Source of the DNA: Alphaproteobacteria bacterium
Lineage (GTDB): Bacteria > Pseudomonadota > Alphaproteobacteria > Rs-D84
Direction: 5' to 3'
Assembly (NCBI GenBank): GCA_015062495.1
Contig: SUUN01000002.1
Location: 71,905-135,904 of the forward strand
Length of the DNA: 64,000 nt
Positions 3,178-62,194 of the stretch are shown here, piece by piece (the first letter of the stretch is position 1; every line of letters starts with the position of its first letter). Made by a program: the position numbers and the translations under genes. The notes beneath the pieces are model-generated. The model was not told the origin of the DNA, did no database searches, and was given only the letters and a program-made list of their open reading frames with translations.

Positions 3178-3789
3178 ATGAAATTTTTTGTTAACTTTCT
3201 GTCTGCATTCCGCATTGCCGCGGCATTTGCAATTATCCCGACATTAATGTTCCAAATGTATTGGACAACATTTATTCTGTATGTCCTGGCGGCTGCGTCC
3301 GATTGGTTTGACGGCTATCTGGCGCGCAAATACGATGTATGCAGCAAAATTGGCGGCGTCATGGATCACATTGGGGATAAATTACTGGTTATGAACACAC
3401 TGATTATGTTATCAGTCATGATGCCAGTATGGTTTGTTGTTGTCCCAGTAATTTTGATGATTGCACGCGAATTGTACATTTCTGGCCTGCGCGAATTTTT
3501 GGGCACCCAGAAAATAGAAATGCCAGTACCCAAGGCACGCTTTTCCATGGGCAAAATCAAGACCACCCTGCAAATGGTTTCAATCGCTGCATTTTTGTTA
3601 ATCTTTGCTGTTGGCACATTAATTACGCCTGAATCAGACAGTCGTACATTAATGTACCTGATTTACATCCTGCCCCAGGTTGGCATTTGGGGTCTGTGGC
3701 TGTCATTGGTTGCATCTATTTGGTCTGCAACACAATACACAGGTACATTCCTGGGCCACATGAAAACATTGGACAAGAAAAAGAAATAA
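3178..3789 (+). CDS. pgsA: CDP-diacylglycerol--glycerol-3-phosphate 3-phosphatidyltransferase (CDP-alcohol phosphatidyltransferase family)
   Basis: 203 aa polytopic membrane protein with the DWFDGYLARK...G...D...D CDP-OH transferase signature. Confidence 0.75.
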   Translation: MKFFVNFLSAFRIAAAFAIIPTLMFQMYWTTFILYVLAAASDWFDGYLARKYDVCSKIGGVMDHIGDKLLVMNTLIMLSVMMPVWFVVVPVILMIARELYISGLREFLGTQKIEMPVPKARFSMGKIKTTLQMVSIAAFLLIFAVGTLITPESDSRTLMYLIYILPQVGIWGLWLSLVASIWSATQYTGTFLGHMKTLDKKKK

Positions 3790-3792
3790 AAA

Positions 3793-3805
3793 CGCGCTAT
3801 ACGCA
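3793..3805 (+). repeat. 13-mer CGCGCTATACGCA, site 1 of 6 (plus orientation), 4 nt after the pgsA stop
   Basis: Exact 13-mer. Extended context is TAAAAACGCGCTATACGCACTAAATCCGGC. Confidence 0.6.
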
Positions 3806-3807
3806 CT

Positions 3808-3833
3808 AAATCCGGCATCCGCCGGATTTTTTA
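3808..3833. terminator. rho-independent terminator hairpin AAATCCGGCATCCGCCGGATTTTTT
   Basis: 6-bp GC-rich stem with a 4-nt loop and a T-tract. The identical 21-mer recurs at 40962-40987. Confidence 0.7.
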
Positions 3834-3887
3834 TTTACCCAGAAACACTTCGGTAAATAAAAGTTTAACGAAGTAAAAAATAAAAAC

Positions 3888-3978
3888 GTCATACCCGCGC
3901 AGGCGGGTATCTATTGCCCCGCAGGGACTGCATAAAAATGTCTGCGACGCAGTGGATTCCCGCCTTCGCGGGAATGAC
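3888..3978. repeat. pair of inverted 24-bp palindromic units flanking a 43-bp core
   Basis: Unit 1 is GTCATACCCGCGCAGGCGGGTATC (3888-3911). Unit 2 read on the reverse strand is GTCATTCCCGCGAAGGCGGGAATC (3955-3978). Each unit is itself a hairpin (CCCGC-N4-GCGGG). The A/T differences between units are compensatory within each stem. Confidence 0.5.
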
Positions 3979-4085
3979 GAGTCTTAATATTAATTGCTCT
4001 TTGCGCTTTGCTATTTGCTCTTTGTTTGCCCAACGGGCAAACTTAAATAAACTTTTATTTAACGTGGTATTCCTATCTCATATCT

Positions 4086-4120
4086 CAAAAAAATCCCGCG
4101 GTTGCGGGATTTTGTTTTTC
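4086..4120. terminator. bidirectional terminator AAAAAAATCCCGCGGTTGCGGGATTTTGTTTTT
   Basis: Hairpin with flanking A- and T-tracts, immediately downstream of the stop of the minus-strand gene ending at 4131. Confidence 0.6.
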
Positions 4121-4130
4121 CATCATCTGA

Positions 4131-4412
4131 TTATTGGATACCGACGCGGAACTGGTCGCCCCATTCGGCCACGTTTTGACCGCCAATGGTACATTTTATA
4201 TCTTCAAAACCATTTTCAACCTGGTTCTTTTTGACAACACTGCTGGTGATTAATCCGCCCGCAGTCCCCAATACAACCCCCGCAATACTGTCAGATGCCA
4301 AACGCGCGGTGTTAAATTTACCTTCTTCGTTTTTCCATACACTAACATCATCCCGGAATTTATTGTGTATCGATGTCAGTTGGCTGTACACACTGTTAAC
4401 CGTCTGGGTGGC
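4131..4412. repeat. ~280-bp inverted repeat (left copy), paired with 7219-7500
   Basis: Encodes the shared C-terminal 93 aa (ATQTVNSVYSQL...GDQFRVGIQ). The six-frame track shows identical antisense ORF products on both copies, implying nucleotide identity over at least 195 nt. Confidence 0.8.
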
Positions 4413-5609
4413 TGTAAACGTCGCAGACAAAACGCATTTTGTTTGCTCGTCATTAATTACCATGTTTGGATTGGTACATTTACATTCATTGTTTACCCAA
4501 TGCGCACCTGTGATTTTGTTGCATTCGACAATATCAGCCTTTAATTGACATTTTTTATTGCGCCATTCGTGTTGTGGGTTTTCGCATTTGCATTCGCCGT
4601 TATCCCAATATGCGCCGGTACTGGCGGCGGCCTCGCAATCACGTTTTAATTGCGCAGGATCGGTTAAAACACATCTGTCGCCATCGCGTTTATAGTTGCT
4701 GTCGGTGCAAACACATTCGCCATTATCCAGACGCAGATTCTTTGCCGCGTCACATTTACACCGGCCGCCCGACCATGTGCCACCTGATTTTACGCATTTG
4801 TTGCGAAGTGCCGCCGCGGCATTTTCGTTATTTATTGTCGCTTGAGATTTAACGCATTTCTTTTTGGTGGTATTAGGCTCGTATTTGGTTTCGCAAGAGT
4901 CTTTGATTAATGTTAAATCCCATCCGTTTGCTGCACATGTCACTGTACATTTTGCGTTGGTTTTAATGTATTCGGTGCTTTCTAATTTTCCAACAACAGA
5001 ACCAGAATTATTTGCCGCTATACAATCTTGTGAAAAGTTATAGCCGTTTGGGTGAGTTACTCCATCCTTGGTTTCACACTTGGGATTACGTGTGTCGGTC
5101 ACGCAATTGGTTTTATCCGCAGTGGGAACGAATCCAGTCTTACATTTATACATTACGCAACCATGATTGCCTGCGCCTAAGACAATACTGTCCCCTGTAG
5201 CACTTTGTATCGCGCCAGTTTTTGTGCCGTCAATTGCGAAAAATTTTTCCACATTTTGGGCCGTGCTACGTACTTCTGAATCCGAACATGTATCAGTTGG
5301 GTTGTGATTTGTCCATGTGTCATTATGACTGCCTGCATCAGAGCAATAAAAGAAACCATTTATACGATGGTTGAACGTATAATCTGGATGCTTGATGGCA
5401 ATTATTGTGCCTTCGCCACATTCGTAGTCATTGTCGCCCCAATTGCAACGATAGCACTGACCAGTTGCGTTATCTCCAACAACACCAGATGTTGATAGAA
5501 TGCTTTTATTGCTGCCACCACCGGGGCTGCATGTCGTAACCTTGCAATCTGCAAACGCATTTGTGCAAATAAGCGTTGAAAACACCACGAAAAATCCAAA
5601 TTTCTTCAT
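4131..5609 (-). CDS. secreted cysteine-rich protein with EGF-like CxC...C repeats and a conserved C-terminal glycine-zipper domain (family member A)
   Basis: 492 aa. Signal peptide MKKFGFFVVFSTLICTNAFA. About 50 Cys, with repeated C-x-C-x(5-12)-C modules (GGRCKCDAAKNLRLDNGECVCTD, GECKCENPQHEWRNKKC, NECKCTNPNMVINDEQTKC). The last 93 aa are identical to those of the 5791..7500 product. Confidence 0.8.
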   Translation of the reverse strand: MKKFGFFVVFSTLICTNAFADCKVTTCSPGGGSNKSILSTSGVVGDNATGQCYRCNWGDNDYECGEGTIIAIKHPDYTFNHRINGFFYCSDAGSHNDTWTNHNPTDTCSDSEVRSTAQNVEKFFAIDGTKTGAIQSATGDSIVLGAGNHGCVMYKCKTGFVPTADKTNCVTDTRNPKCETKDGVTHPNGYNFSQDCIAANNSGSVVGKLESTEYIKTNAKCTVTCAANGWDLTLIKDSCETKYEPNTTKKKCVKSQATINNENAAAALRNKCVKSGGTWSGGRCKCDAAKNLRLDNGECVCTDSNYKRDGDRCVLTDPAQLKRDCEAAASTGAYWDNGECKCENPQHEWRNKKCQLKADIVECNKITGAHWVNNECKCTNPNMVINDEQTKCVLSATFTATQTVNSVYSQLTSIHNKFRDDVSVWKNEEGKFNTARLASDSIAGVVLGTAGGLITSSVVKKNQVENGFEDIKCTIGGQNVAEWGDQFRVGIQ

Positions 5610-5631
5610 AAAAAATCTCCCTTGAAGCCTG

Positions 5632-5659
5632 CCTAATCCAAACGGTGGTTTGGATTAGG
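5632..5659. promoter_or_regulatory. perfect 28-bp palindrome CCTAATCCAAACGGTGGTTTGGATTAGG in the 5' leader of the minus-strand Cys-rich gene
   Basis: Sits 23 nt upstream of the ATG at 5609, just before the RBS AAGGGAGA. A 22-bp core recurs at 5744-5765 upstream of the divergent gene, in the same orientation relative to each gene. Confidence 0.55.
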
Positions 5660-5684
5660 CATATATTCGCGATTTAAAATATCC

Positions 5685-5713
5685 TTGGCACGTCCCGGAA
5701 AATATGATAAAAT
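5685..5713 (+). promoter_or_regulatory. candidate sigma70 promoter TTGGCA-17-TAAAAT for the 5791..7500 gene
   Basis: Spacing and hexamers fit consensus. The predicted start would put the downstream palindrome in the 5' UTR. Confidence 0.3.
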
Positions 5714-5743
5714 AACATGTATTAAGGATAGGAAAATTTGCTG

Positions 5744-5768
5744 AATCCAAACCACCGTTTGGATTAGG
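5744..5768. promoter_or_regulatory. second copy of the palindrome (AATCCAAACCACCGTTTGGATTAGG) in the 5' leader of the plus-strand Cys-rich gene
   Basis: Located 22 nt upstream of the ATG at 5791 and followed by CATATATAAGGGGAGA (RBS). Confidence 0.55.
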
Positions 5769-5790
5769 CATATATAAGGGGAGATAATCC

Positions 5791-7500
5791 ATGAAAAAAA
5801 TTGGTTTAATGATATTGTGCTGTATGATGATTGGCTCGACCGCATGGGGTAAGAGTGATTGCGAATATATCAAGGTTGGTACAGAAAAGTATGGATGTGA
5901 TACATCGGATTATAGTTCCAAGGAAATAGGCTATAACAGTGTTTATCAAGTGCTGGGGACGGGCTATTGCTATACTCAATCTAATACCAAAATGAGTGAT
6001 TTTACAAATAAAAAAGTAGCCTGTTACGACAAATCGGGCAGCGATGACTTGTGGACACGCGAACCCTTGAATCTTGATCCCAACAGTGTTATCAAAGATG
6101 TTAATAATTTGGTTGAGCATGCTGTATATGAAATTGCAAATTGCAAAGGTGATGGGGTGGCGGTTGCGCTGACCACTGAACAAATCCAGAATGGTGCTAA
6201 TGCAGTATGTTTTAACACCCCTGTAAAAATATCATGCCAACGGAATTATGCTTATGATGGCAATAAATGCATTCCGTTTGAGCAATGGGTGGGCGGATTT
6301 GACGATATTTGCAAGGAATCCAGTGTACAGCACGATGGCGTGGCGGATGAAAAAAAATTGAACACTGGAAATGATACGTATGTGTATTGCTATACAGAAC
6401 AGGAATTGCAAGGTATACGCGATAGGTTTTATTACGGTAATTCTTGCCTGGCAAATAAACATAAATTTAGACTTGGCAATAAATATTATAATTGCACGCC
6501 AAGCGGCTGGACCGAGCACACTTTTTCATGGTGTACAACTGGGAACGATTTCCAAAAATGTGATGGTATAGAACACTGTGTCACCGAATTATATGATAAC
6601 AGTACTCAAAAGGCAATAAAGGATGCCATCGGAACCGGTCAGTCAATGATATCTGATACAGGATCAACATATTGCCTGCGTAATGTTTGTGACAAAGGTT
6701 TTAGAAAGGTTGGCGACAAGTGTGTTGCAGAATCGGTTGTGCGTGATAATGAACAACGCGCCCGTAACGCCCAACAATCATGCGTATCAACGGGTGGTGT
6801 GTGGAAAGTAGGCACTTGTATGTGTGCGCCAGATAAAAATCTGGAACGTGATGGAAACACAAAATGTCGGTGCAAGGCAGGATATGAATACATCGATTCC
6901 AATAATAAGTCACAGGGCTGTAAAAAGATGAGTAAGACCATGATGAAAGAGGCCTGTGATGCCGCGTCCGATGCGTCATGGGATGTAAGTACAGAAACCT
7001 GTGTATGCAATATGGGTGATAACTATGTATTCAATTACGCCCAGAAAAAGTGCCTGCCGAACGATACGTATGCGGCATGTCAAAAATTGGTTGCGGCCGG
7101 GGATGCGCGTTGGGATGATACAGCCAAGGTATGTACATGTACTAAAAAGGGATTCGAATTTGACAGGGCGCAATGCGTTGAAACCGCCCAGGCAACCGCT
7201 GAACGGTTAACACGGGAAGCCACCCAGACGGTTAACAGTGTGTACAGTCAACTGACATCGATACACAATAAATTCCGGGATGATGTCAGTGTATGGAAAA
7301 ACGAAGAAGGTAAATTTAACACCGCGCGTTTGGCATCTGACAGTATTGCGGGTGTTGTATTGGGAACTGCGGGCGGATTAATCACCAGCAGTGTTGTCAA
7401 AAAGAACCAGGTTGAAAACGGTTTTGAAGATATAAAATGTACCATTGGCGGTCAAAACGTGGCCGAATGGGGCGACCAGTTCCGCGTCGGTATCCAATAA
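5791..7500 (+). CDS. secreted cysteine-rich protein with EGF-like repeats and a conserved C-terminal glycine-zipper domain (family member B)
   Basis: 569 aa. Signal peptide MKKIGLMILCCMMIGSTAWG. EGF-like modules (GTCMCAPDKNLERDGNTKCRCKAGYEY, ETCVCNMGDNYVFNYAQKKC, KVCTCTKKGFEFDRAQC). C-terminal 93 aa identical to the 4131..5609 product. Confidence 0.8.
   Translation: MKKIGLMILCCMMIGSTAWGKSDCEYIKVGTEKYGCDTSDYSSKEIGYNSVYQVLGTGYCYTQSNTKMSDFTNKKVACYDKSGSDDLWTREPLNLDPNSVIKDVNNLVEHAVYEIANCKGDGVAVALTTEQIQNGANAVCFNTPVKISCQRNYAYDGNKCIPFEQWVGGFDDICKESSVQHDGVADEKKLNTGNDTYVYCYTEQELQGIRDRFYYGNSCLANKHKFRLGNKYYNCTPSGWTEHTFSWCTTGNDFQKCDGIEHCVTELYDNSTQKAIKDAIGTGQSMISDTGSTYCLRNVCDKGFRKVGDKCVAESVVRDNEQRARNAQQSCVSTGGVWKVGTCMCAPDKNLERDGNTKCRCKAGYEYIDSNNKSQGCKKMSKTMMKEACDAASDASWDVSTETCVCNMGDNYVFNYAQKKCLPNDTYAACQKLVAAGDARWDDTAKVCTCTKKGFEFDRAQCVETAQATAERLTREATQTVNSVYSQLTSIHNKFRDDVSVWKNEEGKFNTARLASDSIAGVVLGTAGGLITSSVVKKNQVENGFEDIKCTIGGQNVAEWGDQFRVGIQ
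7219..7500. repeat. ~280-bp inverted repeat (right copy), paired with 4131-4412
   Basis: See the left-copy entry. Confidence 0.8.
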
Positions 7501-40961: not shown

Positions 40962-40987
40962 AAATCCGGCATCCGCCGGATTTTCTA
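40962..40987. terminator. terminator AAAATCCGGCATCCGCCGGATTTTCT (identical hairpin to 3808-3833)
   Basis: Same 21-mer hairpin as the one after pgsA. Confidence 0.7.
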
Positions 40988-41260
40988 TTCAGTGTAATAA
41001 CAATCACCTGCATATGTTCCCGAACCCGTTGTGTCACTAAAACTATTACCGGACGGTATGTAACAACTTGTAATACCACCCGTATTTTGATCCACCGTTG
41101 TTCCATATACACCACCCGACGACGGGCATCGCACACACGATGTACCACTTAAATAATACCCCGTATAACACGAATACGTCGTAGACGAAACCGCACATGT
41201 ATCTGCATACACCGACGACATGCACAACCCCACCCAAAGGGCAAATAATATCTTCTTCAT
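40985..41260 (-). CDS. small secreted cysteine-rich protein
   Basis: 91 aa. Signal peptide MKKILFALWVGLCMSSVYA. 9 Cys, Gly/Thr/Ser/Tyr-rich. Confidence 0.55.
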   Translation of the reverse strand: MKKILFALWVGLCMSSVYADTCAVSSTTYSCYTGYYLSGTSCVRCPSSGGVYGTTVDQNTGGITSCYIPSGNSFSDTTGSGTYAGDCYYTE

Positions 41261-41700: not shown

Positions 41701-41800
41701 AAAAAACAAAAACCACTGAAAAATCTTTCAAGTGGTTGGAGGTTCGAAACAATTATAGAGAATTGTGGGCTTATTTATATATATCACCACCCTCCAACCC
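41701..41800 (-). promoter_or_regulatory. conserved structured 5' leader element, copy 1 (long stem + terminator-like hairpin + U-tract before the RBS)
   Basis: In mRNA orientation the order is: stem GGGUUGGAGG (41799-41791) pairing with CCUCCAACC (41742-41734) around a ~48-nt loop, then hairpin CCACUUGAAAGAUUUUUCAGUGG (41735-41713), then UUUUUGUUUUUU, then AGGAGGA and AUG at 41678. Homologous to 51107-51210. Confidence 0.55.
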
Positions 41801-42006
41801 AGACGGATTGGCGGTTCAGACATATCTATAAAAAACAACACCACCCAGATAACTTTTTACCCAGTGGTGTCGAAATCTATATCTATGCCTGTATTTCTAT
41901 GTTGCACATTGCAACATCTCTATAACGGGTTTCGACACCCCGCCCACGGGAATTCCCCATCGGCACTTTGAGTATAAACGAAACCACAAATCAACGCAAT
42001 TATAAA

Positions 42007-42136
42007 TTTTGCTTCTATTTACTGGATTGTCCCACTACACTTGCGATGGCAACAAAAAGAGGCTTAAAATTTCTAGAACCTTAAAAACTCTTGTCATTGC
42101 GAGCAAACGCCAGTTTGCGTGGCAATCCAGTCTTAT
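42007..42136. repeat. direct repeat, copy 1 (~130 bp), containing a palindromic SLRxNxSLRGNPV-coding REP-like unit
   Basis: TTTTGCTTCTATTTACTGGATTG ... TTCTAGAACCTTAAAAACTCTTGTCATTGCGAGCAAACGCCAGTTTGCGTGGCAATCCAGTCTTAT. Lies just 3' of the GIY-YIG gene. Inner hairpin is GCAAAC-GCCA-GTTTGC. Confidence 0.75.
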
Positions 42137-42146
42137 GCATTCCGAC

Positions 42147-42455
42147 CTACCTGACCCAAAACATATCTTGTAAACTTAAATCTATCCAATCTGGATTTAT
42201 ACTTTCAATCAAACTTAATTTATATTTTCTTGACTGCGACTTGATATGCTTTTCACGTTCAATAGCATCATTTACATATTGAAACTCTTCCCAATATCCC
42301 AACTTATCACAACCATATCGTGCCGAAAAAGAATCTGGATTTATCTTATTTTTGTGTTCCCAAACACGTCTTGTAACATCATCCGTCATACCAGTGTACA
42401 ACGTACCATTTCTGCGATTAAACATAATATAAACATAGAATTTATATTCTTTCAT
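42147..42455 (-). CDS. GIY-YIG nuclease-superfamily small protein (UPF0213-like)
   Basis: About 102 aa from MKEYKFYVYIMFNRRNGTLYTGMTDDVTRRVWEHK (GIY...YIG-type motif with R and E). The track start at 42515 would run into the upstream repeat. Confidence 0.7.
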   Translation of the reverse strand: MKEYKFYVYIMFNRRNGTLYTGMTDDVTRRVWEHKNKINPDSFSARYGCDKLGYWEEFQYVNDAIEREKHIKSQSRKYKLSLIESINPDWIDLSLQDMFWVR

Positions 42456-42587
42456 TTTGCTTCTATTTACTGGATTGCCGCGGTCGTTAACACTCCCTCG
42501 CAATGACAAAGACACTTAATATTCTAGAACCCTAAAAACTCTTGTCATTGCGAGCAAACGCCAGTTTGTGTGGCAATCCAGTCTTAT
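42455..42587. repeat. direct repeat, copy 2 (~130 bp), immediately 5' of the GIY-YIG start
   Basis: TTTTGCTTCTATTTACTGGATTG ... TCTAGAACCCTAAAAACTCTTGTCATTGCGAGCAAACGCCAGTTTGTGTGGCAATCCAGTCTTAT. About 90% identical to copy 1 in the conserved blocks. Confidence 0.75.
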
Positions 42588-51106: not shown

Positions 51107-51210
51107 CATAATAAAAAACCACTGAAAAAACATCAAGTGGTTGGAGGTTCGTTACAACTTTTCAGGAAATTGTTCGCTTTATTCAATATATTCAAGCGAC
51201 CTCCAACCCT
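51107..51210 (-). promoter_or_regulatory. conserved structured 5' leader element, copy 2
   Basis: In mRNA orientation the order is: GGGUUGGAGGUCG (51210-51198) pairing with CGAACCUCCAACC (51151-51139) around a ~46-nt loop, then hairpin CCACUUGAUGUUUUUUCAGUGG (51140-51119), then UUUUUUAUUAUG..., then RBS GGGGGGA and AUG at 51088. Stem and hairpin are conserved with copy 1; the loop sequence is different. Confidence 0.55.
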
Positions 51211-51348
51211 TTTGGTTGGAGAGATTGCCCGCACACTCTAATTCTGCGCAGACACCTGAAAACACGGGTAACGACACCCCATCACGGCAAAGCCACCGTG
51301 ACAACTATATTATAACACACAGAAAACAAATAAGAAAGAATAAAAATA

Positions 51349-53343
51349 TTACCTGTATTTGCGCCTACAAAAACCAATCGACACAATTAAAATAATAATC
51401 ATCCATCCATTCAGTCCAATCACACGATACGGTGTAATATGTGCCCCCCATACAAATCCATCCAGCACCCCCGTCGCGCCAATCGGCAATGATGATATGA
51501 TTGCGCCATCCGCCCCAACAAACGCGCTAATGCCCGAATAATTTGCACGAATAATCGGCAACCCTGATTCAATTGCATATCGCCGCACCATATCCAGATG
51601 CTGATATGTGCCCGGCGTATTACCGAACCAATTATCATTTGTAATATTCACAATTGCATGCACATGCCCCGTATTCCCACCTGGCAACAAAGAATCTGAA
51701 AAAATAATTTCATAACAAATCGCAGGCGCAAAAACAAAATCCCCAACCGCAAGCAGTTCTGGTCCACGTCCCGGCATCAAATCAACCGGCGCAGGCAAAA
51801 ATCCCAACGGTCTATACTCGCCAAATGGCACCAGGTGTGACTTGCTATAAATCTTGTTAATATCACCACCGTCGTTCACAACAACCATAGAATTAGACAC
51901 CCCATTCCCGTCAAACGTATTTGTCCCCATAACAACGGGACGTCCAATTATTTTTACAAAATCAAATGTATCATTTGGCACAACAACAAACGGATATGTG
52001 GTTTCCGGGAACACAACCATATCATATACCCCAGGCTGCGTTGCCAAATTCATTAAATTATTCAAATTGGTTTCCGCACGCGCCAACGCTTCGGCCCGAC
52101 TGTGTGTTGCCTTTTGCAATTGGGAATTGGCAGGTTGCACAATACGAACCATTGGCCCTGTTGCATCCGCCCCAACATCTGAATATCGCATATTTTGCGC
52201 ACCAACAAACATTCCACATATGCCCAATAAAAGCATACCAATTAACACCGCCCAACATGCACGACATTTTCTGTCCCGCAAAACTTCAACCAACGCCGCT
52301 ATTACCCCCACAATAACAAACGTTAATCCCAACGCCCCCCACAACGCCATAGAATTTGCCAACATCGGCAATGGCATTGTTATATTTGCAACCGGATTCC
52401 ACGGAAATCCTGTAAACATCCATTCACGCGCCCACAGAACCAACGCCCAAACACAGGCAAACAAAATCGCACGCGCCCCACCCGATATACGCATACGCGC
52501 AATCGCAACGAACGGCCATGAAAATATCAGCGCACCCGCAATCGCCAATCCAACCACACCTGGAATTGTCCAAATTGCAAACTGTTGGGTTAATTCCGGC
52601 ACAACATAAATCGAATGCAGAACCCACCAAAAATTTGCCACGGCATACATCGCCCCAAATGGCGACACACGCAATAACGAACGCCAAAAGCCACCTATAT
52701 TTTCATTACGAACCGTCAACCAGTATGCGCCCATTATTCCAACAATCGTCCACCACCAATGGTAAAATGGTGCGAACCCAAAACTGGCAACCCCACCAAA
52801 CAGTGCGTACAGCGCATATTGCCAAAAACCATTTTCACGAATTTTTAATCGCCGAAAAAACGCAAGCACCCCACCACCTGGGCAGCAACTGGCATCATTA
52901 CACGAAACAGCGACATCATCCGCATATGGATTTTTTATCCCCATTTTTTTCAGCACCTTTATTTCCTTCATCTCCATCAGAATTGCTTCTTCATCTGTCA
53001 TATGATCGTACCCCAACAGATGAAACATACCATGCACAACCATATGCGCCACATGATCATGAAACGATATTTTTGCCTCTTTTGCTTCGCGCATTACTGT
53101 ATCAATGGAAATATAAATATCCCCCAGTAACACATCGTCCCCCAATTCAAACGACAGCACATTTGTCGCCCTGTCTACATTGCGATACGTTTTATTGATT
53201 TCATGAATTTCCGCATCATTGGTCAGTATAATCGACACTTCGGCATTTTTATATTTTGCCCCAACCACAATATTGGCGATTTTTTGAAAGTCAATTTTAT
53301 GACTATCCCAACGTTTATCATGTGCATCAATATATACTTTCAT
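51349..53343 (-). CDS. fusion ORF: endoribonuclease YbeY (N-terminal ~150 aa) joined in-frame to apolipoprotein N-acyltransferase Lnt (C-terminal ~500 aa)
   Basis: N-terminus has the YbeY motif HGMFHLLGYDH. After the linker VAVSCNDASCCPGGG comes a polytopic membrane domain and a nitrilase-like CN-hydrolase domain (ICYEIIFSD) typical of Lnt. No intervening stop codon. The usual ybeY-corC-lnt arrangement lacks corC here. Confidence 0.75.
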   Translation of the reverse strand: MKVYIDAHDKRWDSHKIDFQKIANIVVGAKYKNAEVSIILTNDAEIHEINKTYRNVDRATNVLSFELGDDVLLGDIYISIDTVMREAKEAKISFHDHVAHMVVHGMFHLLGYDHMTDEEAILMEMKEIKVLKKMGIKNPYADDVAVSCNDASCCPGGGVLAFFRRLKIRENGFWQYALYALFGGVASFGFAPFYHWWWTIVGIMGAYWLTVRNENIGGFWRSLLRVSPFGAMYAVANFWWVLHSIYVVPELTQQFAIWTIPGVVGLAIAGALIFSWPFVAIARMRISGGARAILFACVWALVLWAREWMFTGFPWNPVANITMPLPMLANSMALWGALGLTFVIVGVIAALVEVLRDRKCRACWAVLIGMLLLGICGMFVGAQNMRYSDVGADATGPMVRIVQPANSQLQKATHSRAEALARAETNLNNLMNLATQPGVYDMVVFPETTYPFVVVPNDTFDFVKIIGRPVVMGTNTFDGNGVSNSMVVVNDGGDINKIYSKSHLVPFGEYRPLGFLPAPVDLMPGRGPELLAVGDFVFAPAICYEIIFSDSLLPGGNTGHVHAIVNITNDNWFGNTPGTYQHLDMVRRYAIESGLPIIRANYSGISAFVGADGAIISSLPIGATGVLDGFVWGAHITPYRVIGLNGWMIIILIVSIGFCRRKYR

Positions 53344-53370: not shown

Positions 53371-55242
53371 TTATGCCATATTTCCTTTGAATTCTTGCCC
53401 ATACAACAGCAAATCTTTCTTTGCATTTTTCTGGTGAATCTGTTTTATCCCAGAATGAAAGGCCACTTTTTTATTACCACCTTGCTTGATTTTTTCAGAC
53501 ACACGTGTGATATCATTTTGCACACGCCTGTTGCCATTTGCCAATGCTAATTTATAGTTCGCCAATGCCTTGTCTAATTTCCCCAGTTGTTCGTACGCAA
53601 ATCCCGCGTTGTATTGCGCTGCACCATATTGTGATTTATCACCGATACGCTGGACCACCTCGCGCGATTGGGCGATTGCTTCGTTATACATCCCCAGCTT
53701 ATTATAGGTTGCCGCCAAATCATTACGCAGCAATGCATTATCCGGATATTTTGCAATCATATCCTGATATTTTTCGGCCGCCCCACGATAATCCCCGGCG
53801 CGATACGCACCCACCGCATCGGCATATAATTCATCATATCCGATAACATATGTTTTAACCTCGACCTGCTCTGCTTCTTTTTTCTGTTTATCAGACCGCA
53901 ACACATTATCCCAAACACTTAGTGCACCTATTTCACACTTTCCAATTGCACACTGTTGTGCAATATCGACCGGCAACCAATCCGCCGCTGTTTTCCAGTG
54001 TGCCAACGATTCCCCATGTTTATTAACCGGATTTTCCAACCATTTATAGAAACGTGTCAACGTTTCATCATTTGCCACACGTTTGCCATTTTTTTCAACG
54101 AACCAGTTTTCACGTTTATCACCAATAATCTGATAAAACTCGTACATTCCGCCAATTGGGATTTTCAAGAAAACCTCAGGCTTAATATTTCCCTTCATTA
54201 CCTGGGCTTCTAACCATCTGCGCCATTTCAGTCCATTACCCCCCTTTAAAAAGTTCCCCAAACTATTGCCTATTTCATCCTTGGGCGCGCCATTCAGCCA
54301 CGCATCGCCAACGGACGTCATATGTTCCACCGGATACTTTGCAAACACATCACGCACCATTTCATTGGTTATTGCATTACCATATTGTTCATGCAGTTTG
54401 TCCAATTCTGCAAAACGTTCTTCGTATTTCCGATTCCTTTTTCCGTCTACCTTGGGTTCTTCTATTAAATCAGTACCAACATTATATGTTGCCGCCGACA
54501 ATGCAATTAATTCCCCCGCCCGATTAATATCAACGTTATCAAACACCACATCATAGCAATACAACCGAAACAGTGTTTCATTTTCCATAATATGCCAACA
54601 CGCTAATTCATAGGCCGCCTGGGTGGAAATTGGCGGTGTATTTTTATTAACACGCGTTCCGTCCTTTAAAACAGTTGAACCAAATCCAATTGTCCATATT
54701 CCACGTCCATCCAGATACGGCGCATGCATACCATTTGCATCAACATTAACCCCTTCCTTGGCAATCAGGTCCGCAACCAGATACGGCAACGCCCCCCGCA
54801 TTTTATCCAGATATTCTGCATACGTTCCACGCTTTGCGCGCTCAGCCTCGCGTTCAATTTTTACCTGATTAACCAAATCAGAAATTTCAACCCCCGCCTT
54901 GATTCCACCCGCAATAGATGCAATCAGCATATAATAAATCATATGCGACGACAGGTTTGGATGCCGTTTCATAAACTCGTGTAATTTTTTATTTTCGCCT
55001 TTTTTATTTTTTCCAACACGCATATCACGCAGTGCCTTTTCCCCCGCACGCAACGCATGATTATCCAACGTAATATATTTGGTTGCCCAGAATAAAAATT
55101 GTGCCAACCCCGTCATGGTCATCCCTGCACCTTTTGCAACCTTGCCATACCATTTATCGGGTTGTATACGCTTGATTTCCTGGGTTGCGCGCCCAAACGC
55201 TCTGTGTGGAAAATTAACAATATTACGGAATTTTTCTGACAT
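53371..55242 (-). CDS. membrane-anchored GH24 (T4/lambda-type) lysozyme-domain protein with C-terminal TPR repeats
   Basis: 623 aa. Predicted transmembrane helix (MIYYMLIASIAGGIKAG). Lysozyme motif LIAKEGVNVDANGMHAPYLDGRGIWTIGFGST with an E...D...T catalytic-triad pattern. C-terminal TPR-like AEKYQDMIAKYPDNALL...YNKLGMYNEAIA...YEQLGKLDKALANY. Confidence 0.65.
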   Translation of the reverse strand: MSEKFRNIVNFPHRAFGRATQEIKRIQPDKWYGKVAKGAGMTMTGLAQFLFWATKYITLDNHALRAGEKALRDMRVGKNKKGENKKLHEFMKRHPNLSSHMIYYMLIASIAGGIKAGVEISDLVNQVKIEREAERAKRGTYAEYLDKMRGALPYLVADLIAKEGVNVDANGMHAPYLDGRGIWTIGFGSTVLKDGTRVNKNTPPISTQAAYELACWHIMENETLFRLYCYDVVFDNVDINRAGELIALSAATYNVGTDLIEEPKVDGKRNRKYEERFAELDKLHEQYGNAITNEMVRDVFAKYPVEHMTSVGDAWLNGAPKDEIGNSLGNFLKGGNGLKWRRWLEAQVMKGNIKPEVFLKIPIGGMYEFYQIIGDKRENWFVEKNGKRVANDETLTRFYKWLENPVNKHGESLAHWKTAADWLPVDIAQQCAIGKCEIGALSVWDNVLRSDKQKKEAEQVEVKTYVIGYDELYADAVGAYRAGDYRGAAEKYQDMIAKYPDNALLRNDLAATYNKLGMYNEAIAQSREVVQRIGDKSQYGAAQYNAGFAYEQLGKLDKALANYKLALANGNRRVQNDITRVSEKIKQGGNKKVAFHSGIKQIHQKNAKKDLLLYGQEFKGNMA

Positions 55243-61391: not shown

Positions 61392-62194
61392 TTTTCCAGC
61401 CCCTTTTTCCAATGTTCAATTTCAACACCAAATATACTTTTAATCTTGTCTTTATCCAGCACACTATAAAACGGCCGCACCGCACGCGTTGAATATTGGT
61501 GGGATTTTATCGGATTTACCCGACACCCCAGTCCCGACATTTCCATAATTTCACAGGCGAAATCATACCACGAACACACGCCTTCGTTTGTAAAGTGATA
61601 TATACCGGAATTTTCACGCGTCATCTGTGGAATAATTTTTACAATCGCATCCGCCAAATCCCCCGCATACGTCGGACTGCCAATCTGGTCTGCGACAACA
61701 TTGATTGAATCTTTTTCTGCACCCAATCGCCGCATAGTCTTTACAAAGTTATTCCCATGCGTGCTGTACAGCCACGCCGTACGAATAACAACCACCACAT
61801 CCGTATTTTCCAACGCGGCCAATTCCCCTGCCCGCTTGGTCCGCCCATATACCGACACCGGATTTGTTTCATCATCTGGCGCATATGGACAATGCCCCAT
61901 GCCATCAAAAACATAGTCTGTGGAAACATGAATAATTTTTGCCCCCGTCTGGGCCAGGTTTCGCACCCCATCAACATTGATTTTTGTCGCCAATTCCACA
62001 TCGTCTTCGGCCGCATCTACGGCGGTGTACGCCGCGCAGTTTATGATTACATCAATATTATTTTCGTGCACAAAATTACGCACCGCCACCGCATCTGTGA
62101 TATCCAGCGCATCGCGCCCCACCGCAATTGCATCTGGCAAACGTGCAACTAATTCACGCCCCAATTGCCCATTACAGCCCGTAATCAGTTGCAT
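61373..62194 (-). CDS. rfbD: dTDP-4-dehydrorhamnose reductase
   Basis: 273 aa. RmlD family (MQLITGCNGQLG...). Confidence 0.8.
   Translation of the reverse strand: MQLITGCNGQLGRELVARLPDAIAVGRDALDITDAVAVRNFVHENNIDVIINCAAYTAVDAAEDDVELATKINVDGVRNLAQTGAKIIHVSTDYVFDGMGHCPYAPDDETNPVSVYGRTKRAGELAALENTDVVVVIRTAWLYSTHGNNFVKTMRRLGAEKDSINVVADQIGSPTYAGDLADAIVKIIPQMTRENSGIYHFTNEGVCSWYDFACEIMEMSGLGCRVNPIKSHQYSTRAVRPFYSVLDKDKIKSIFGVEIEHWKKGLEKCIKQF

Follow-up and report, generated by a model that had tools for sequence, protein, structure and literature searches.

Two elements of about 100 nucleotides (nt), here called copy A and copy B, lie just upstream of genes for cysteine-rich (Cys-rich) secreted proteins in the window, a 64,000-nt stretch of DNA from an Alphaproteobacteria bacterium (assembly GCA_015062495.1, contig SUUN01000002.1, positions 71,905 to 135,904). 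The feature is genuine, strongly structured and kept in evolution. The 100-nt elements are only the 3′ part of leaders of ~190-250 nt (190-290 bases overall), in which, at the level of sequence, two exclusive sets of helices are shown to be encoded and to be maintained by compensatory and triple-compensatory change. From modelled folds we propose, with a probability of roughly 0.6, that each element forms the 3′ portion of a 5′ leader, transcribed from its own promoter, that acts as a bistable terminator/antiterminator and is OFF by default. Sequence comparison further places the element, as a divergent and re-wired variant, with a known but poorly understood RNA family, sRNA-Xcc1 (Rfam RF02221). 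An earlier note on this DNA had described an attenuator or riboswitch; its attenuator idea is right in kind, and it is wrong on the ground-state helix and on the riboswitch.

Two exclusive folds of a conserved leader

Within the window, both copies have a 39-nt block in common (BLAST E ~2e-7), and an nhmmer profile search of all 64 kb found these two copies and no third; a third occurrence of GGGGTGTCG at 61521 was discarded as a chance match because it lies within an rmlD-like open reading frame (ORF). When 596 Gb of genomes, one per species, were scanned with the invariant 19-mer CGAACCTCCAACCACTTGA, 22 loci were obtained where ~4 were expected by chance (calculated). All of them came from metagenome-assembled genomes (MAGs) of gut Alphaproteobacteria in the same context, many labelled Candidatus Enterousia, with 1-2 copies per genome that always precede an ORF. 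A metagenome scan, whose pattern left the stem and terminator free, gave 8 true-hit loci (one duplicating L002, one cut short) and from them 7 distinct usable leaders, plus 3 chance matches, and 7 further divergent leaders were reached via contigs encoding homologues of the 91-amino-acid (aa) ORF of operon A. As counted, these amount to 35 distinct leaders (22 from genomes, 7 from metagenomes and 7 via downstream-protein homologues), all from MAGs of gut Alphaproteobacteria, several of them labelled Candidatus Enterousia. Further copies with preserved pairing, which the earlier note had proposed as a check, are thus at hand.

Inspection of the minus strand located in both window copies the parts that had been described before: a 9-10-bp stem, a hairpin with a U-run directly after it (41712-41701 in A; 51118-51113 in B), and a ribosome-binding site (RBS) and ATG (41678 and 51088), the latter 22-24 nt past the U-run. 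The shared blocks further upstream are likewise present, namely GGGGTGTCG..ACCCGT and a second GGTTGGAG complement, the segment called seg1 below. The description of the loop needs amendment. The stem of copy A encloses 48 nt and that of copy B 52 nt, where 46-48 nt had been given, and the enclosed sequences, held to be completely different, form the same two hairpins in both copies, with compensatory changes in their stems: arm 1, with a conserved loop GA(A)UAUAU..AAUAA, and arm 2, CAAUU..AAUUG.

From 5′ to 3′, the leaders comprise hairpin P1, a G-run (GGGG, GAGG or GGGA), the P2b 5′ strand, CCY, strand X (7-10 nt), a variable P3, often an A-rich linker, seg1, seg2, arm 1, arm 2 with X′ in its loop, the P2b 3′ strand, seg3, the terminator hairpin and the U-run. 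Fold T combines X:X′, P2b, P2a (the G-run with CCUC of seg3) and a seg1:seg2 hairpin, and in fold A arm 1 and arm 2 extend from a three-way junction closed by seg2:seg3. The helices seg1:seg2 and P2a compete with seg2:seg3 for seg2 and seg3, and the arm-2 stem and X:X′ are mutually exclusive because 0 nt separate X′ from the 3′ strand of arm 2. An H-type pseudoknot containing both was rejected on the same ground, and kissing between the P1 loop and the arm-1 loop was rejected for lack of consistent complementarity.

Both helix sets are supported by covariation. In fold T, X:X′ is different in almost every lineage, with the partner always matching (mean duplex energy -11.4 kcal/mol for cognate against -5.8 kcal/mol for non-cognate pairs). 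P2b occurs in at least eight compensatory variants (UCGAAAC:GUUUCGA, UCGUUAC:GUAACGA, UGGAAAC:GUUUCCA, UGAAGAC:GUCUUCA, CUGAUAAC:GUUAUCAG, UUAGCGAC:GUCGCUAA, UAAGAAAUC:GAUUUUCUUA and UCAGAAAU:AUUUCUGA); in the window, the AA-to-UU change of copy B relative to A is matched by a compensating change in the 3′ strand. By reading of the sequences, the G-run is tracked by two partners, the local CCY and seg3 (GGGG/CCYC/CCUC, GAGG/CCUC/CCUC and GGGA/UCCC/UCCC). RNAalifold recovered P1, P2a/b, arm 1 and arm 2 from a plain MAFFT alignment of 19 leaders, in which paired cells reached 95.3%, against 79.3% in shuffles (0 of 500 as high) and ~40% with partners slid; for P2 the figure was 100%, and in four of its pairs both sides had changed. 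MAFFT alignment A2 is mis-registered for UGACC types, and seg2:seg3 was counted by direct complementarity tables and a junction-only alignment (A4). By these tables, seg2 and seg3 are fully complementary in 32 of the 35 leaders, and seg1/seg2/seg3 have changed jointly across three sequence types (CUCCAACC/GGUUGGAGG/CCUCCAACC, CUCCUGACC/GGUCAGGAGG/CCUCCUGACC and CCCGACC/GGUCGGGG/CCCCGACC); on the isolated junction, RNAalifold found compensatory pairs and none broken. Paralogues in one genome (A and B, L015 and L016, L034 and L045) differ in both X and P2b and are alike in seg1-3, a pattern that, judged from sequence, could reflect address-specific RNA-RNA recognition or, alternatively, drift.

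In each of the 35 leaders a hairpin precedes a 9-nt stretch with five or more U, and 33 distinct stems occur; a simple terminator scanner missed this hairpin owing to its bulge and loop size. The long stem had been taken for a mere predecessor of the terminator. However, in 31 of the 35 leaders the final four bases of seg3 (AACC) form the beginning of the terminator stem, so that the stem, sharing AACC with the terminator, is better described as an antiterminator: when seg2:seg3 takes up these four bases, the terminator loses four basal pairs. Nor is this stem the predicted ground state. Fold T with the full terminator equals the unconstrained minimum free energy (MFE) structure in 28 of the 28 leaders folded, and structures constrained to contain seg2:seg3 are 5-23 kcal/mol less stable. 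When the 3′ domain is folded on its own, the mean energy gap between its two folds is only ~4.4 kcal/mol. The 5′ strand is therefore predicted to act as an anti-antiterminator, with OFF as the default state.

The position of the RNA identifies it, on sequence grounds, as the 5′ leader of the downstream Cys-rich gene. A hexamer matching TATAAT at five or more of six positions ends 3-8 nt before P1 in 28 of the 35 leaders, usually with a TTG-type -35 box at 17±1 nt from the -10 box, and the downstream ORF starts, in nearly all leaders, 54-74 nt after seg3 begins and, where there is enough downstream sequence, 20-40 nt past the U-run, a gap too short for a separate promoter. The earlier note had allowed that the hairpin might simply be the reused terminator of the upstream gene; a related view would make the element a decaying repeat or mobile-element remnant without a regulatory role. 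The upstream genes in the window are indeed co-oriented, and relatives of the element occur in mobile elements. However, a conserved promoter lies between upstream gene and leader, and several upstream genes have their own hairpin and U-run 50-70 nt before it (by eye: L002, L006, L008, L017, L021 and L022), so the hairpin is not the terminator of the upstream gene. Reuse is refuted in this form. The remnant form is countered by purifying selection on pairing, the compensatory structure being kept across lineages whose leader sequences are clearly different, and by the low copy number and constant placement before an ORF, and we consider this whole class of explanation very improbable. Two other promoter candidates were rejected: one within the element (arm-1 loop TTGAAT with TATAAT/TATAGT of arm 2) has a spacing of 18-22 nt and a start that would still precede the terminator, and CACTTGA as the -35 box of a hairpin-spanning promoter matches at 9 of 12 positions in copy B only and is not conserved.

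We propose that the leader works as follows. In fold T, the 5′ strand (GGGG-YG-UCGAAAC-CC-X) would pair across 100-200 nt with X′-GUUUCGA-A-CCUC; seg2 would be held by seg1 in a local hairpin, and AACC of seg3 would be free for the terminator hairpin and U-run. Transcription would then stop 20-25 nt ahead of the RBS, leaving the gene OFF. In fold A, seg2 would pair with all of seg3, closing a three-way junction of tRNA-like shape from which arm 1 and arm 2 extend; X′ would be kept in arm 2, the G-run would pair locally with CCY and the terminator would lack its four basal pairs, allowing RNA polymerase to continue into the gene for the Cys-rich secreted protein, which would be ON. As the trigger we prefer RNA-RNA interplay, because of the analogy with P4 CI RNA (seqA/seqC), P1 c4 and Gifsy-1 IsrK: a terminated or processed leader copy would occupy the X and P2b address strands of the nascent transcript. 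By that analogy, self-RNA acting in trans in a P4- or IsrK-like manner is a speculative candidate, and an RNA-binding protein is speculative to the same degree; a small ligand seems unlikely, and kinetic or temperature effects on the AU-rich long-range helices would be improbable as the trigger.

Relationship to sRNA-Xcc1 and to known RNA switches

Searches against Rfam 15 gave a divided answer to the question, raised earlier, of whether the element belongs to a known family. In the window no family matched at threshold, and permissive scans of both copies returned nothing relevant. The divergent relative L039, in contrast, matches RF02221 at 43.5 bits (E 1e-6) across the whole 87-position model, below the gathering threshold of 53 bits. 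In the RF02221 model, a 9-bp stem closes a three-way junction that also comprises arm 1 (with AUACAA..GAA), arm 2 and a junction strand. The same junction is present in our leaders, with a closing stem that is complementary in 32 of 35 and with covarying arms. ARAGORN and Rfam were negative for tRNA, tmRNA (including the two-piece alphaproteobacterial form), 6S and SRP RNA as candidates for the element; in the window they found only tRNA-Phe and tRNA-Lys, both elsewhere.

Four bona fide RF02221 loci (L046-L049), found by BLAST with the Rfam consensus in Nitratidesulfovibrio, Pseudomonas, Neisseria and Aeromonas, score 68.8-72.6 bits. In all four, a strand ~105-113 nt upstream of the junction has complementarity to the junction strand and also to the arm-2 loop, and a hairpin and U-run lie between that strand and the junction. 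By eye, the same upstream strands are found in a Stx-type Shigella phage copy (L050; found by BLAST, not scored with Rfam) that precedes a putative antirepressor gene. The copies of Pseudomonas, Nitratidesulfovibrio and the phage also have an arm-2 loop complementary to the downstream RBS, and in L046, L047 and the Shigella phage this complementarity precedes BRO/antirepressor or uncharacterised genes; among the relatives as a whole, the cargo comprises symE, BRO/antirepressor and ORF6N genes. L050 itself corresponds to positions 3588-6067 of Shigella phage Ss-VASD, and ~100 records of Stx2a-converting phages have an sRNA-Xcc1-type element before a putative antirepressor gene, mostly without annotation for the element. 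The annotated start of the antirepressor coding sequence in L050 (locus position 1253) overlaps the RNA, and an RBS and ATG follow at ~1314-1326; the start is therefore probably mis-annotated.

Several features connect these loci with the window copies: a G/C-rich closing stem of 9-10 bp, a conserved AU-rich arm 1, a variable arm 2, a junction strand of 6-8 nt, a small trailing hairpin that reuses the last C's of the closing stem, and a co-oriented gene 50-70 nt downstream. The Aeromonas copy even has CGUCGAAAC and GUUUCGAACCUCC almost letter for letter as in window copy A. The arm-1 motif, AUACAA-(ACCCGNAAGGG hairpin)-GAAUA in RF02221, reads GAUAUAUAUAAAUAA and GAAUAUAUUGAAUAA in the window, where the inner hairpin is missing, GAAUAUACAAUACA in L034, and UUAUACAAC..GCGAAGA in L039, where an inner hairpin is present; by sequence, the Enterousia arm-1 loop looks like the RF02221 arm-1 internal loop with its inner hairpin deleted. 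There are also clear differences. The window copies are below threshold, with no reported score; their arm 1 lacks the inner ACCCGNAAGGG hairpin and their closing stem has another sequence. They sit in the chromosome of a reduced-genome gut alphaproteobacterium, not in an integron, plasmid or phage; they precede genes for Cys-rich secreted proteins rather than symE, BRO or antirepressor genes; and their trailing hairpin is a full intrinsic terminator. Furthermore, the Rfam model and the accessible literature treat sRNA-Xcc1 as an independent trans-acting small RNA (sRNA), without the 5′ complementary strands.

sRNA-Xcc1 was described as an 88-nt RNA of X. campestris with one Northern band at ~100 nt (PMC2996969). 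It lies upstream of symE, in the same orientation, in integron cassettes (bioRxiv 10.1101/2025.06.18.660453) and upstream of an ORF6N protein in APSE phage (10.1101/2020.03.17.996009), and seven copies are found in Xylella (PMC12189769); the literature describes it as trans-acting. The elements of the window might accordingly be one or more stand-alone trans-acting sRNA genes, with the hairpin and U-run as their own terminator, expression of the downstream gene as incidental read-through, and action on unlinked mRNAs through the arm-1 or arm-2 loop. That single Northern band and the Rfam label (Gene; sRNA) favour this view, as do the conserved, unpaired arm-1 loop GAAUAUAUUGAAUAA and the terminator fold as ground state, from which most transcripts would end as small RNA; it is also compatible with a dual function, as in IsrK. 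However, it does not account for the constant placement of an RBS and ORF past the U-run, with neither room nor consensus for a separate promoter, or for the conservation of the initiation region GGAGGAUUGAAAUG with the leader despite differing ORFs, and it gives no role to the seg1/seg2/seg3 triple covariation and the 4-nt terminator overlap. We regard it as rather unlikely.

At the level of architecture, the module is shown by sequence comparison to be homologous to the sRNA-Xcc1 loci, which suggests that the sRNA-Xcc1 family has an unmodelled second conformer. Tentatively, sRNA-Xcc1 might be the tRNA-like half of a widespread, programmable switch that is complete in itself, with the Rfam junction as one conformer and the 5′ strand ~110 nt upstream producing the other. 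If so, the address helices X:X′ and P2b would make copies within one genome orthogonal (A and B; L034 and L045), outputs would differ between RBS masking (antirepressor/BRO-type genes, in a phage and a plasmid) and an intrinsic terminator (fast-evolving Cys-rich proteins, at the surface or secreted, in genome-reduced symbionts of the gut), and a self-produced RNA input could give bistable, phase-like expression without a protein regulator. The hairpin carried within P3 of copy A (ACACCAC..GUGGUGU with UGUUUUUU, 41830-41870) has a counterpart in bona fide sRNA-Xcc1 loci, where the same hairpin is followed by U7 and AUGCC; in L046-L050 this equivalent hairpin and U-run sits between the 5′ strand and the junction. 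Transcription may stop here a first time and yield a short 5′ RNA with X and P2b.

Several of the nearest known systems are RNA regulators of phages. In P4 (CI RNA, seqA and seqC) and N15 (CA RNA), a small RNA lies within the untranslated leader of the operon that it controls, one internal sequence is complementary to near-identical upstream and downstream sites, as with seg1/seg2/seg3, and the output is premature transcription termination. CI RNA pairs with both seqA and seqC (PMC4825925, summarising Sabbattini 1995 and Briani 2000). In P4, however, it is a processed RNA that pairs, in trans, and this pairing favours termination, whereas here the alternatives are intramolecular and seg2:seg3 pairing should prevent an intrinsic terminator. 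CI-mediated termination in P4 is Rho-dependent. In our leaders, seg1/seg2/seg3 provide an RNA-internal sequence with upstream and downstream complements, and X/X′ an upstream pair; a downstream RBS site, X″, is found only in the phage and plasmid relatives and not in the window.

The P1/P7 immI c4-icd-ant system also has a tRNA-like processed RNA upstream of the regulated gene, and the shape in our leaders is tRNA-like in having an acceptor-like stem of 7-9 bp followed by a purine and C. The c4 loop sequences are reportedly complementary to an upstream site and a downstream RBS site, and P1 c4 involves a1/a′/a2 sites and RNase P processing. c4 represses Ant synthesis (PMC8546580). Unlike c4, the window leaders have no specific RBS target for the arm-2 loop, and their output would be a terminator rather than a translational block plus Rho. 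Gifsy-1 IsrK has a short form and a read-through mRNA isoform, and the latter can adopt either an inactive or an active structure (PMC4825925); as proposed here, a promoter-proximal RNA ends at a terminator, and the short form acts on the long form, but IsrK controls translation of orf45-anrP rather than termination and has no sequence relationship with our element. Neither C4 (RF01695) nor isrK (RF01394) matched in any scan of the window and relatives. With terminator/antiterminator leaders (riboswitch platforms, T-box and trp-type leaders), the element has in common exclusive helices that share strands between promoter and RBS (hairpin and U-run in 35/35, promoter in 28/35, an opposed alternative helix sharing 4 nt in 31/35); it differs in having no ligand-pocket conservation, tRNA specifier or conserved leader peptide.

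Weighing the proposed switch against other mechanisms

The attenuator layout of the earlier note, a cis leader with a terminator-like hairpin between promoter and RBS and a competing helix, is upheld, and its riboswitch component is not. In a metabolite or ion riboswitch, a small ligand bound either at the multi-helix junction of fold T or at the three-way junction closed in fold A would set the choice between terminator and antiterminator. An arrangement of aptamer and expression platform with well-covarying helices fits this idea, as do host genomes of <1 Mb (PMC12306168) and leaders that have no conserved partner protein gene, or neighbouring regulator, beside them. Small genomes are presumed to encode few regulators. 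Yet no known class matches in Rfam 15, the best being Na+ DUF1646 on the wrong strand (17.9 bits, E 0.14), and the strands that would form a pocket (junction GUUUCGAA, X, X′ and CCY) vary by lineage and covary as helices instead of being conserved unpaired. Invariant unpaired bases are limited to the arm-1 loop, which, together with the A-rich linker, is replaced or lost in the L039/L041 type. The unrelated cargo of the relatives (symE, BRO/antirepressor, ORF6N) also fits a self-contained switch better (10.1101/2025.06.18.660453; 10.1101/2020.03.17.996009), and a riboswitch appears improbable.

Leader-peptide attenuation was considered because both window copies contain a 20-codon frame (A VVIYINKPTILYNCFEPPTT; B LNILNKANNFLKSCNEPPTT) that follows an SD-like (Shine-Dalgarno-like) GGAGG in seg2 and ends ..EPPTT-UGA in the 5′ arm of the terminator, where a ribosome stalled at Pro-Pro or at the stop would mask the terminator. 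By reading, the in-frame stop recurs at the same codon in L023, L029 and L033, but it is missing in L026, L027 and L030; the frame is broken or start-less in five leaders (L002, L006, L016, L017 and L021), the SD-to-start spacing is only 0-3 nt, and the stem changes are compensatory as RNA while altering the 'peptide'. With a frame that is not conserved, this mechanism is largely refuted and hardly credible.

A bistable attenuator of the P4 CI/P1 c4/IsrK kind is in our view the best reading of the modelled folds, and several points weigh against it. Termination, read-through and the transcription start are predicted. Fold A is never the full-length MFE structure, and no stabilising factor was found; as modelled, the seg1:seg2 hairpin forms first during transcription, so that fold A needs strand displacement. 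In L026, terminator and antiterminator overlap by just 1 nt. The window copies have no RF02221 match even at E<=10 on stretches of 261-601 nt, nor has L041, which is of the same type as L039, and the family link rests on one sub-threshold match and shared architecture. Finally, the Enterousia arm-2 loop pairs with the downstream RBS no better in cognate than in non-cognate combinations (-10.6 vs -10.0 kcal/mol); this lack of specificity led us to reject it as antisense to that RBS, and a c4-style translational target is missing. Should the switch turn out to be constitutive or a mere terminator, what is left would be a new, divergent subgroup within a known Rfam family.

If the proposed switch holds, it would offer a testable structural mechanism, two conformers with named strands, for sRNA-Xcc1, an RNA family widespread in integrons, plasmids and Shiga-toxin-type phages. 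It would also mean that an RNA immunity module of the phage type has been co-opted for chromosomal genes of Candidatus Enterousia-like bacteria, members of the order Rs-D84 that live in the gut and have genomes mostly <1 Mb (PMC12306168), where it sits before the most rapidly diverging Cys-rich secreted proteins, candidates for interaction with a host or partner. The paired address helices would in addition be natural orthogonal, re-programmable RNA switches, of interest to synthetic biology.

Downstream genes, surroundings and coordinates

The proteins encoded downstream have signal peptides and 3-10% Cys, and are mostly Cys-rich. Many have in common just a C-terminal Cys-rich domain of ~60 aa (C..GYY..C..CP..GG.YG...CYIP.G.SFSD.TG.G.Y...CYY.E) behind hypervariable N-terminal parts, as in the ORFs after L001, L003, L008, L010, L011, L013, L015 and L022; others, including both first ORFs in the window, show no detectable relationship. 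The 91-aa ORF of operon A is a stand-alone copy of this domain, and one homologue carries Pfam PF07699 (GCC2_GCC3), a mostly eukaryotic-type module. Although the ORFs are unrelated, the translation-initiation region (A/G)GGAGGAUUGAAAUG is conserved along with the leader (window 41690-41676; L003, L005, L012, L013, L029, L034 and L045). Both CAAUUCUCU of arm 2 and CGAACCUCC before seg3 are able to pair with this region, and a translational layer of control is possible on sequence grounds.

Table 1. Parts of the two leaders in the window. All features are read on the minus strand, and coordinates are window positions.
Feature	Copy A	Copy B	Remark
Element	41701-41800	51107-51210	3′ third of each leader
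Leader	41964-41701, ~250 nt	51302-51113, ~190 nt	
Promoter	41971..41999: -35 TTGCGT 41999-41994, spacer 17 nt, -10 TATACT 41976-41971	-10 TATAAT 51314-51309	
Hairpin P1	41942..41964	51300-51283	A: leader 5′ end; helix 1, both-sided changes in 7/9 pairs
5′ switch strand	41918..41941	51255..51280	A: holds G-run, P2b 5′ strand, CCC and X
G-run	GGGG 41941-41938	51280-51277	A: P2a 5′ strand
P2b 5′ strand	UCGAAAC 41935-41929	UCGUUAC 51274-51268	
CCC	41928-41926		Local partner of G-run
X	UUAUAGAG 41925-41918	UUUUCAGG 51262-51255	
Hairpin P3	41826..41917	51225..51254	A: variable insertion, long hairpin
Terminator-like hairpin in P3	41870-41838 (ACACCAC..GUGGUGU), then UGUUUUUU 41837-41830		
seg1	CCGCCAAUCC 41805..41814	CUCUCCAACC 51223-51214, then loop AAAA	A: partner of seg2 in terminator-permitting fold
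seg2	GGGUUGGAGG 41791..41800	GGGUUGGAGG 51209-51200	A: shared strand, partner seg1 or seg3
Stem	GGGTTGGAGG 41800-41791 with CCTCCAACC 41742-41734	51209-51200 with 51147-51139	Identical in A and B
Stem-enclosed interior	41743..41790		Arm 1, arm 2 and P2b 3′ strand; in B at 51148..51199
Arm 1	41790-41765, loop GAUAUAUAUAAAUAAG	51199-51174, loop GAAUAUAUUGAAUA	
Arm 2	41766-41749	51172-51155	
X′	CUCUAUAA 41760-41753	CCUGAAAA 51166-51159	
P2b 3′ strand	GUUUCGA 41750-41744	GUAACGA 51155-51149	
seg3	CCUCCAACC 41734..41742	CCUCCAACC 51147-51139	A: 5′ part CUCC pairs G-run (P2a); full length pairs seg2 (antiterminator); last 4 nt pair inside terminator stem
Hairpin CCACTTGA..TCAGTGG	41735-41713	51140-51119	RNA CCACUUGA..UCAGUGG
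Intrinsic-terminator-like hairpin	AACCACUUGA..UCAGUGGUU 41737-41711	51142-51117	
U-run	41712-41701	51118-51113	
RBS	AGGAGG 41690-41685	GGGGGG 51098-51093	
ATG	41678	51088	
First ORF	41678-41274, 134 aa	51088-48368, 906 aa	Signal peptide in both; A: 9.7% Cys; B: no Pfam match
Operon ORF 2	40985..41260, 91 aa		

The neighbours of the elements in the window (gltX, hlyIII, GIY-YIG, ybeY-lnt, dksA-like and thioredoxin genes) do not form a mobile-element context, and synteny among the leaders is only loose, with gltX-hlyIII upstream in ~10 loci. Leader L034, the only one of the Enterousia type with a phage-like gene neighbourhood, adjoins genes for a head-tail connector, SocA_Panacea, DnaB and an HTH regulator (L034 1-2632), and the other leader of the same MAG, L045, adjoins serS; these settings hint that the module moves between prophage and chromosome. 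Several leaders adjoin tRNA genes (L039 1713-1799, L033 2434-2508 and L026 670-740), in L039 a tRNA-Ser-like gene ~100 nt upstream as read by eye, and this proximity may reflect past integration of the module at such sites.

Just upstream of leader A, a GIY-YIG nuclease ORF (42147-42515) is flanked by two repeats on the minus strand: a direct repeat of 66 nt with 97% identity (42071-42136 and 42522-42587), which contains GATTGCCACGC..GCTCGCAATGAC, and a second one of 24 nt (42006-42029 and 42454-42477). The arrangement resembles what a small mobile GIY-YIG cassette would leave on insertion at this place. In the region upstream of leader B, one ORF of 664 aa (51349-53343, minus strand) encodes a YbeY endoribonuclease domain at residues 20-133 together with apolipoprotein N-acyltransferase (LNT_N and CN_hydrolase), either as a gene fusion or as two genes without an intervening stop in frame. 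Just upstream of this ybeY-lnt ORF, a protein of 623 aa, in which TPR repeats come after a phage-lysozyme domain, is encoded at 53371-55242 (minus strand).

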